From assembly GCA_000182565.2 (NCBI GenBank), contig KQ257460.1: DNA of 64,000 nucleotides; one strand, 5' to 3'. Of this stretch, positions 58,787 through 59,070 are shown piece by piece (the first letter of the stretch is position 1; every line of letters starts with the position of its first letter). The translations under genes and the position numbers were made by a program. Origin of the DNA: Spizellomyces punctatus DAOM BR117 (taxonomy: Eukaryota). The notes beneath the pieces were generated by a model. The model was not told where the DNA came from and did not search any database. It worked only from the letters and a program-made list of their open reading frames with translations.

Positions 58787-59070
58787 CCTGGGCAAGGTAG
58801 CCCAGGGGTTAAGGCGCCGACGTGCACCTTAACAGAGCGGGTTCGAATCCCGGAGCAGGTCGTCAGAGACTGATTGCTTGCGGCGGTAGGAGCAAGTGAC
58901 GCCCCTTCGTGTGGGTCCCAGTGAAGCTTGTGCTGAGGGAGGGCTTTGATGAGCGACGTACCCGACTGACAGAATCTGCGTGTGGACGGAGCAGCTGCGC
59001 GCCCGAAAGGGCCCCCAATGATACCCGCCGGGTTGAGGGAGGGCGGGGAAGAAAGGGAATTATCCTTTTT
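58787..59070 (+). ncRNA. Putative Pol III (type 2 promoter) structured ncRNA or tRNA-derived element
   Basis: A box TAGCCCAGGGG 58798-58808, B box GGTTCGAATCC 58840-58850, multiple hairpins, TTTTT at 59066-59070; no valid acceptor or anticodon stems. Confidence 0.6.

Follow-up and report, generated by a model that had tools for sequence, protein, structure and literature searches.

The 64-kb window (the whole stretch of Spizellomyces punctatus DNA that was analysed) contains a short transcription unit that gives rise to an abundant RNA of about 270 nt, which RNA reads cover continuously from about position 58796 into a T-run. On balance, we consider it probable that a former tRNA gene has given rise here to an autonomous type-2 Pol III gene, that this gene belongs to a small family, and that its product is a stable RNA which mimics tRNA. 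The initial annotation, made from the sequence, had proposed a Pol III-type unit with an A box, a B box, an upstream element TTAAAATA at 58757 and a T5 terminator. A check of the sequence located each of these at its expected place. The unit itself was borne out as discrete, expressed and of Pol III type, with the boundaries of the RNA reads coinciding with those of the motifs. The features are collected in Table 1.

Table 1. Features of the unit and of its RNA. Positions are those of the window.
Feature	Position	Strand	Basis
TATA-like element TTAAAATA	58757-58764	+	sequence; 32-39 nt before the dominant 5' end of the RNA
Perfect 7-bp hairpin CCTGGGC/GCCCAGG	58787-58793/58800-58806	+	inverted-repeat search
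Abundant RNA	58796-59070	+	raw RNA reads and contigs; dominant 5' end 58796, 3' end within T5
A box TAGCCCAGGGG	58798-58808	+	sequence; 31 nt upstream of the B box
Hairpin GTTAAGGCGC/GCACCTTAAC	58808-58817/58824-58833	+	10-nt arms, 90% complementary, including GTTAAGG/CCTTAAC; in MFE folds
T-arm, 4-bp stem CGGG/CCCG, 7-nt loop TTCGAAT	58838-58852	+	sequence, inverted-repeat search
B box GGTTCGAATCC	58840-58850	+	sequence; within the T-arm 58838-58852
A58 of the T-loop, in GUUCGA	58846	+	RNA-only A>T mismatch site
Body unrelated to tRNA, G+C-rich, with three internal direct repeats	58853-59050	+	composition, repeat search
9-bp helix including 2 G-U pairs	58860-58868/58944-58952	+	sequence
TGATGA and CTGA	58947-58952 and 58966-58969	+	sequence
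GCCC-GAAA-GGGC hairpin, GNRA loop	59001-59012	+	sequence, MFE folds
Hairpin CCCGCC/GGCGGG, 12-nt loop	59024-59029/59042-59047	+	MFE folds
Predicted terminal hairpin, A/G-rich tract pairing with the U tail	59051-59070	+	MFE folds
T5, Pol III-type terminator	59066-59070	+	first run of at least four T downstream of the B box; read depth stops here

The A box and the B box lie on the transcribed strand, and their spacing falls within the 30-60 nt that define a type-2 Pol III gene. When both strands of the 64-kb window were scanned, the perfect B box occurred only at this site. No T4 run is present inside the unit, whose 3' end reads GGGAATTATCCTTTTT, and the T5 stands at the 3' end of the RNA, as is required of a type-2 terminator. 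A promoter role of TTAAAATA is suggested by its likeness to the upstream TATA elements of Pol III genes. A scan for bacterial promoters and terminators, with models that are not applicable to this host, gave 0 sites. The G+C content of the unit is 60.7%, that of its flanks 52% and 47%, and that of the window 47.4%. When 285-nt windows were taken every 20 nt across the 64 kb, the unit was the most G+C-rich 285-nt stretch, and its value was matched by 0.03% of these windows. A perfect 7-nt inverted repeat, AGGGAAT/ATTCCCT (59054-59086), flanks the T5, with one arm in the RNA and the other in the downstream flank.

A run search listed 24 runs, nine of which contain the stretch or a part of it, and four of the 24 were aligned on positions 58600-59300. 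The X22 data set consists of raw RNA reads under the species label of the window and pools four runs. It gave 1568 aligned reads, including 1563 first mates. Apart from traces they lay on one strand, and no splice joints were reported among them on 58600-59300. Depth was 0-8 up to 58791 (8.3 over 58768-58791), rose to 437 over 58792-58815 and to 646 over 58816-58839, ranged from 165 to 488 over 58840-58983, dropped to 41 over 59032-59055 and to 9 over 59056-59079, and was 0 past 59150. The flanks as a whole had a depth of 0-8. Reads started mostly at 58796 (n=208), with further starts at 58797 (n=62), 58800 (n=64) and 58803 (n=30). Three contigs from other data sets covered parts of the unit: X8 spanned 58795-58961 with 1 difference, X7, from a soil metatranscriptome, spanned 58885-59057 with 1 difference, and X6 spanned 58856-59069 with 0 differences. 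X6 resembles low-coverage genomic DNA (31,527 contigs, 16.8 Mb in total).

Read depth in X22 was unbroken from the tRNA-like head to the body and maximal over the head. The head is therefore not a removed leader and stays in the stable RNA. The A box begins 2-3 nt past the dominant 5' end. In type-2 Pol III genes the A box usually lies farther from the 5' end of the RNA than this, so either the 5' end has been processed or the first bases were lost in the library. The base A58786, located 29 nt past the TATA-like element, is a candidate start, and positions 58786-58790 can pair with 58857-58861.

It had been claimed that the unit carries tRNA-like promoter boxes and forms no cloverleaf. ARAGORN, searching for tRNA and tmRNA, found 0 genes in the window, in agreement with this claim. 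For the 7-bp acceptor stem of a tRNA only 5 bp could pair, between 58786-58790 and 58857-58861, and the 5' strand of that pairing lies upstream of the dominant RNA end. The two perfect 7-bp hairpins and the T-loop hairpin of the initial annotation were recovered from the sequence and by the search for inverted repeats. Since the dominant 5' end falls downstream of the 5' arm of CCTGGGC/GCCCAGG, this hairpin would need a precursor or a minor, longer RNA in order to form. In X22 the arm was present in less than 2% of the RNA depth (8.3 versus 437), which does not support the proposal that the unit as a whole has refolded into a new structure. The hairpin at 58808-58833 derives from the former D-loop region plus the sequence after it.

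A mismatch seen only in RNA falls on A58 of the T-loop. At 58846, A>T was found in 30 of 240 X22 reads with 16 different start places, the cleanest of which had 0 other differences, and the variant was absent from the X6 and X8 contigs. According to a preprint, the tRNA enzyme TRMT6/61A also acts on T-loop-like hairpins, most of them with a loop of 7 nt, where it methylates GUUCRA; the resulting m1A yields misincorporation at rates under the true modification level (bioRxiv 10.1101/202747). Our site presents the features of such a substrate of the m1A58 methyltransferase, namely GUUCRA in a hairpin with a 7-nt loop and misincorporation at the A. With the T-loop-like sites described there it has in common GUUCGA, the 7-nt loop, the G-C stem and the mismatch at the A; those sites, however, occur in human mRNAs and lncRNAs, whereas the hairpin here is what remains of a T-arm in a Pol III RNA. 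We infer that the mismatch marks m1A58, which would mean that the T-arm is folded as in tRNA within a stable RNA. Alternatively, it could represent a minor gene copy.

Folding was compared with that of shuffled sequences. The whole unit gave MFE z values of −0.40 on the plus strand and −1.24 on the minus strand, and the body gave +0.16 to +1.23. The head alone (58786-58862) folded better than shuffles (z −2.62, 3/300). This signal depends on the arm at 58787-58793, and a head starting at 58796 gave z +0.20. The two hairpins of the head are real, and the proposed helices of the body are at chance level. The initial annotation was borne out in part: all its motifs and helices are where they were placed, but refolding of the whole unit into a new structure is not supported, the body helices being no better than those of shuffles. 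Chance-level folding of the body is unlike most structured housekeeping RNAs. Direct repeats in the body are CGGAGCAG at 58851 and 58987, CTTCGTGTGG/CTGCGTGTGG (CTKCGTGTGG) at 58905 and 58976, and TGAGGGAGGGC at 58934 and 59034. Such repeats might be binding sites for proteins. As the order of the three pairs is not collinear, they are not accounted for by simple tandem duplication of the body, and that reading was rejected. In the 12-nt loop of the hairpin 59024-59047, position 59033 showed T>G in 6 of 46 RNA reads, which points either to a modified uridine or to a minor copy of the gene.

No Rfam family reached its gathering score anywhere in the window, and scans of 551 nt and 283 nt at E≤10 gave only trivial matches of 10-14 bits. 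The statement that no hallmarks of SRP, RNase P/MRP, U3 and U6 could be found agrees with these scans. One option had been a tRNA-like leader followed by a snoRNA, as in yeast SNR52 and RPR1. A C/D box snoRNA behind a leader was rejected: depth is continuous and the head is kept, the C- and D-like boxes lie 13 nt apart, there is no terminal stem, and no snoRNA model matched. SRP RNA was discarded likewise, as no SRP model matched and the sole GNRA hairpin (59001-59012) has no AGCA on its 3' side. Judged by eye, telomerase RNA lacks its template-like repeat, and hammerhead, U3, U6, 7SK, Y and vault RNAs have the wrong length or motifs; no model of any of these matched.

Position 58855 was mixed in X22, with G>A in 54 of 106 reads, and read A in the X6 and X8 contigs. 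A 753-nt X6 contig contained a diverged copy, which matches 58841-58882 with 6 differences, then lacks about 20 nt and resumes at the equivalent of 58911-58929. A small family is probable, made up of at least two expressed versions that are nearly identical and of one decayed copy; since X22 pools four runs, the mixture at 58855 might reflect strains instead of paralogues. No second copy of the unit was found in the 64-kb window. When metagenomes were scanned with a 19-mer pattern taken at 58911-58929, four loci came up (L001-L004), which were all rejected as chance with unrelated flanks. One of them, L002, shares 22 identical bases (514-535) with 58911-58932, four beyond what the pattern required, and was taken as chance because of its unrelated flanks. 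A search for relatives through the translated stop-free minus frame 58774-59073 yielded 22 word-sharing candidates, none with E≤0.01.

The unit, with a tRNA-related head bearing its own A and B boxes and an unrelated body, has the layout of a SINE, as the initial annotation had suggested. The RNA would then be the master-copy retrotransposition intermediate of an active or recently active tRNA-derived element, and the other copies would be retroposed. The diverged X6 copy, alike only from the B box onward, as after 5' truncation, and with an internal deletion, is consistent with this, as is the mixed G/A at 58855. Contigs of other runs break at the unit ends 58795 and 59069, as if copies shared the transcribed part only; such breaks, however, are equally expected for RNA-derived contigs or for multi-copy Pol III genes. 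Against a SINE, the locus has no target-site duplication (no common 7-9-mers between 58700-58800 and 59040-59160), the unit ends in its own T5 with no A-rich or simple-repeat tail, and the 64 kb contain no further copy. In addition, just 3 variable positions were found among the 1568 reads, 1157 of which were at least 99% alike, which indicates very few source loci. We regard a SINE as unlikely. The RNA might also be a by-product: a decayed tRNA gene would still recruit Pol III, which would read on as far as the next T-run, and the transcript would have no function. Intact A and B boxes in a broken cloverleaf would suit this, and so would a body that folds no better than its shuffles. On the other hand, the 210-nt body, in the G+C-richest unit of the window, is unlike ordinary intergenic DNA, the depth of the RNA exceeds that of its flanks at least 100-fold and the RNA was also assembled from a soil metatranscriptome, and the second, diverged copy retains blocks of the body. 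Such read-through thus seems a good deal less probable than a SINE.

A strongly reduced or rearranged RNA of the RNase P/MRP type, with a tRNA-like segment at the 5' end of its gene as promoter, like yeast RPR1, seems slightly less probable again than read-through. In RPR1 the A and B boxes stand in the 5' segment and precede a body unrelated to tRNA and a T-run, and the unit is laid out similarly. The stretches at about 58853-58872, 58918-58941 and 58960-58975 presumably resemble CR-I, CR-IV and CR-V of human RNase P RNA, and their order is the same; a 5-bp P4-like pairing of 58862-58866 with 58966-58970 is possible. Nevertheless, no RNaseP_nuc, RNase_MRP or other RNase P model matched, even at E≤10 on 283 nt. 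Against the CR-I and CR-V consensus, the best sites had 2 mismatches at 7 fixed positions, none inside the unit had one or fewer, and the six CR-I sites with 2 mismatches in the unit correspond to the chance level. About 90 nt lie downstream of the CR-V-like stretch, where P/MRP RNAs end, the specificity domain has no room, and the head is retained, as the continuous depth indicates. RNase MRP RNA has, in the accessible text of one paper, a 3-bp P5 beside CR-I, a P8 pentaloop GARAR and a six-nucleotide CR-IV (PMC13184271). The sequence AGTGAA at 58920-58925 fits the AGNNAN of that CR-IV as given there (PMC13184271), but AGNNAN occurs at 10 sites in the unit, and no hairpin with a GARAR pentaloop follows the CR-I-like site. 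GARAR is found in the unit only at 59005-59009, inside the GNRA tetraloop hairpin, and at 59051-59055. We give the least credence to a stable RNA from the minus strand, which would start near 59066 and carry the tRNA-like motifs in antisense. X22 may derive from a library with antisense first mates, as most stranded libraries do. A few reads (depth 0.6-2) at the 5' side of the plus-strand heme oxygenase gene oppose the strand of the abundant RNA, which would suit such a library. A TATA-like sequence at 59084-59115 would lie upstream of the start, and z was slightly lower for folding of the minus strand (−1.24). Yet the two boxes, the distance between them and the T5 are as expected for the plus strand and match the read boundaries, the RNA-only mismatch coincides with A58 of the plus-strand T-loop, and Rfam scans of both strands were without match.

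For the autonomous Pol III gene of tRNA origin that we favour, the following course may be envisaged. TFIIIC would bind the A and B boxes and place TFIIIB near TTAAAATA, and Pol III would initiate at about 58786-58796 and stop in the T5. Since the acceptor stem is missing, RNase P and RNase Z would release no tRNA, and head and body would remain joined. The T-arm would form a true T-loop, with A58 methylated by the tRNA enzyme Trm6/Trm61, and the U tail, paired with the A/G-rich tract, could together with La shield the 3' end. The RNA would then accumulate as a stable small RNP. By analogy with BC1, 4.5S-type and SINE-master RNAs, its tRNA-like elbow might use or compete for the tRNA-binding machinery. 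A bolder proposal is a new class of RNP RNAs, abundant in chytrids, in which a covalently linked tRNA mimic, made of the m1A58 T-loop and the D-loop-derived hairpin, docks a 210-nt effector body onto machinery that handles tRNA, for instance the ribosome, an exportin or RNase P. In its boldest form the body would be a minimal RNase P/MRP-like catalytic core without specificity domain that has a tRNA-like module in cis. This is quite doubtful, less probable than a SINE and only marginally more so than read-through.

A heme oxygenase gene lies directly downstream of the unit (59407-60286, plus strand, at least 3 exons; Pfam PF01126, E 9e-11 and 1e-10). Exons elsewhere in the window encode Sey1/RHD3 (31830-32993, minus strand), an SPT23/MGA2-type DNA-binding protein (36315-37487, plus strand) and an F-box/LRR protein (48760-50969, minus strand). 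The Sey1 fragment is 96% identical to a protein of Spizellomyces sp. 'palustris' and 64-71% identical to those of other Spizellomycetales, in keeping with a Spizellomyces-like chytrid as host. A literature search found no paper on non-coding RNAs, SINEs or vault components of Spizellomyces, and nothing specific to this RNA in work on fungal Pol III ncRNAs, RNase P motifs, Pezizomycotina ncRNAs or fungal SINEs. The 17 fungal structural RNAs treated in one paper are, in its available text, from Ascomycota only (PMC8216456).

An abundant Pol III RNA that matches no catalogued family and retains a modified tRNA-like domain would be a concrete case, outside animals, of a new stable RNA derived from a tRNA gene. 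The finding would be of greater interest if orthologues had a conserved, covarying body. A low-copy SINE or a read-through product would be ordinary, yet its annotation would avoid confusion with a tRNA pseudogene. To our knowledge, the small-RNA repertoire of chytrids, which are early-diverging fungi, is almost unannotated. Spizellomyces can be transformed, so the RNA is a tractable target.

Among known systems, SRP RNA genes with internal A and B boxes, such as yeast SCR1, resemble the unit, whose abundant RNA, about 270 nt long, keeps its internal promoter and U tail in the mature form. Compared with SRP RNA, the chytrid RNA has no Rfam SRP match and no helix-8 hairpin in which a 3' AGCA motif accompanies a GNRA loop; the GAGCA beside the T-arm flanks a 7-nt T-loop and no tetraloop. 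Yeast RPR1 and SNR52 also use a tRNA-like 5' segment as Pol III promoter for an RNA that is not a tRNA. Their leader is cut off, whereas the chytrid head is kept and has the highest depth, and the chytrid body, unlike theirs, has no RNase P or C/D snoRNA signature. BC1/ID, 4.5S-I and B2 share with the chytrid unit an internal A/B box promoter inherited from tRNA, an end in a T-run, abundance, a tRNA-like 5' domain in the mature RNA that is followed by an unrelated body, and a small gene family with decayed copies. In contrast to these stable RNAs of rodents and primates and their SINE relatives, the chytrid unit lacks an A-rich region and a target-site duplication at its locus and has no known partner LINE; at 270 nt it is longer than BC1 or 4.5S, and it has no sequence relation to any of them. 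In kind, the chytrid RNA resembles the known tRNA-derived Pol III RNAs.
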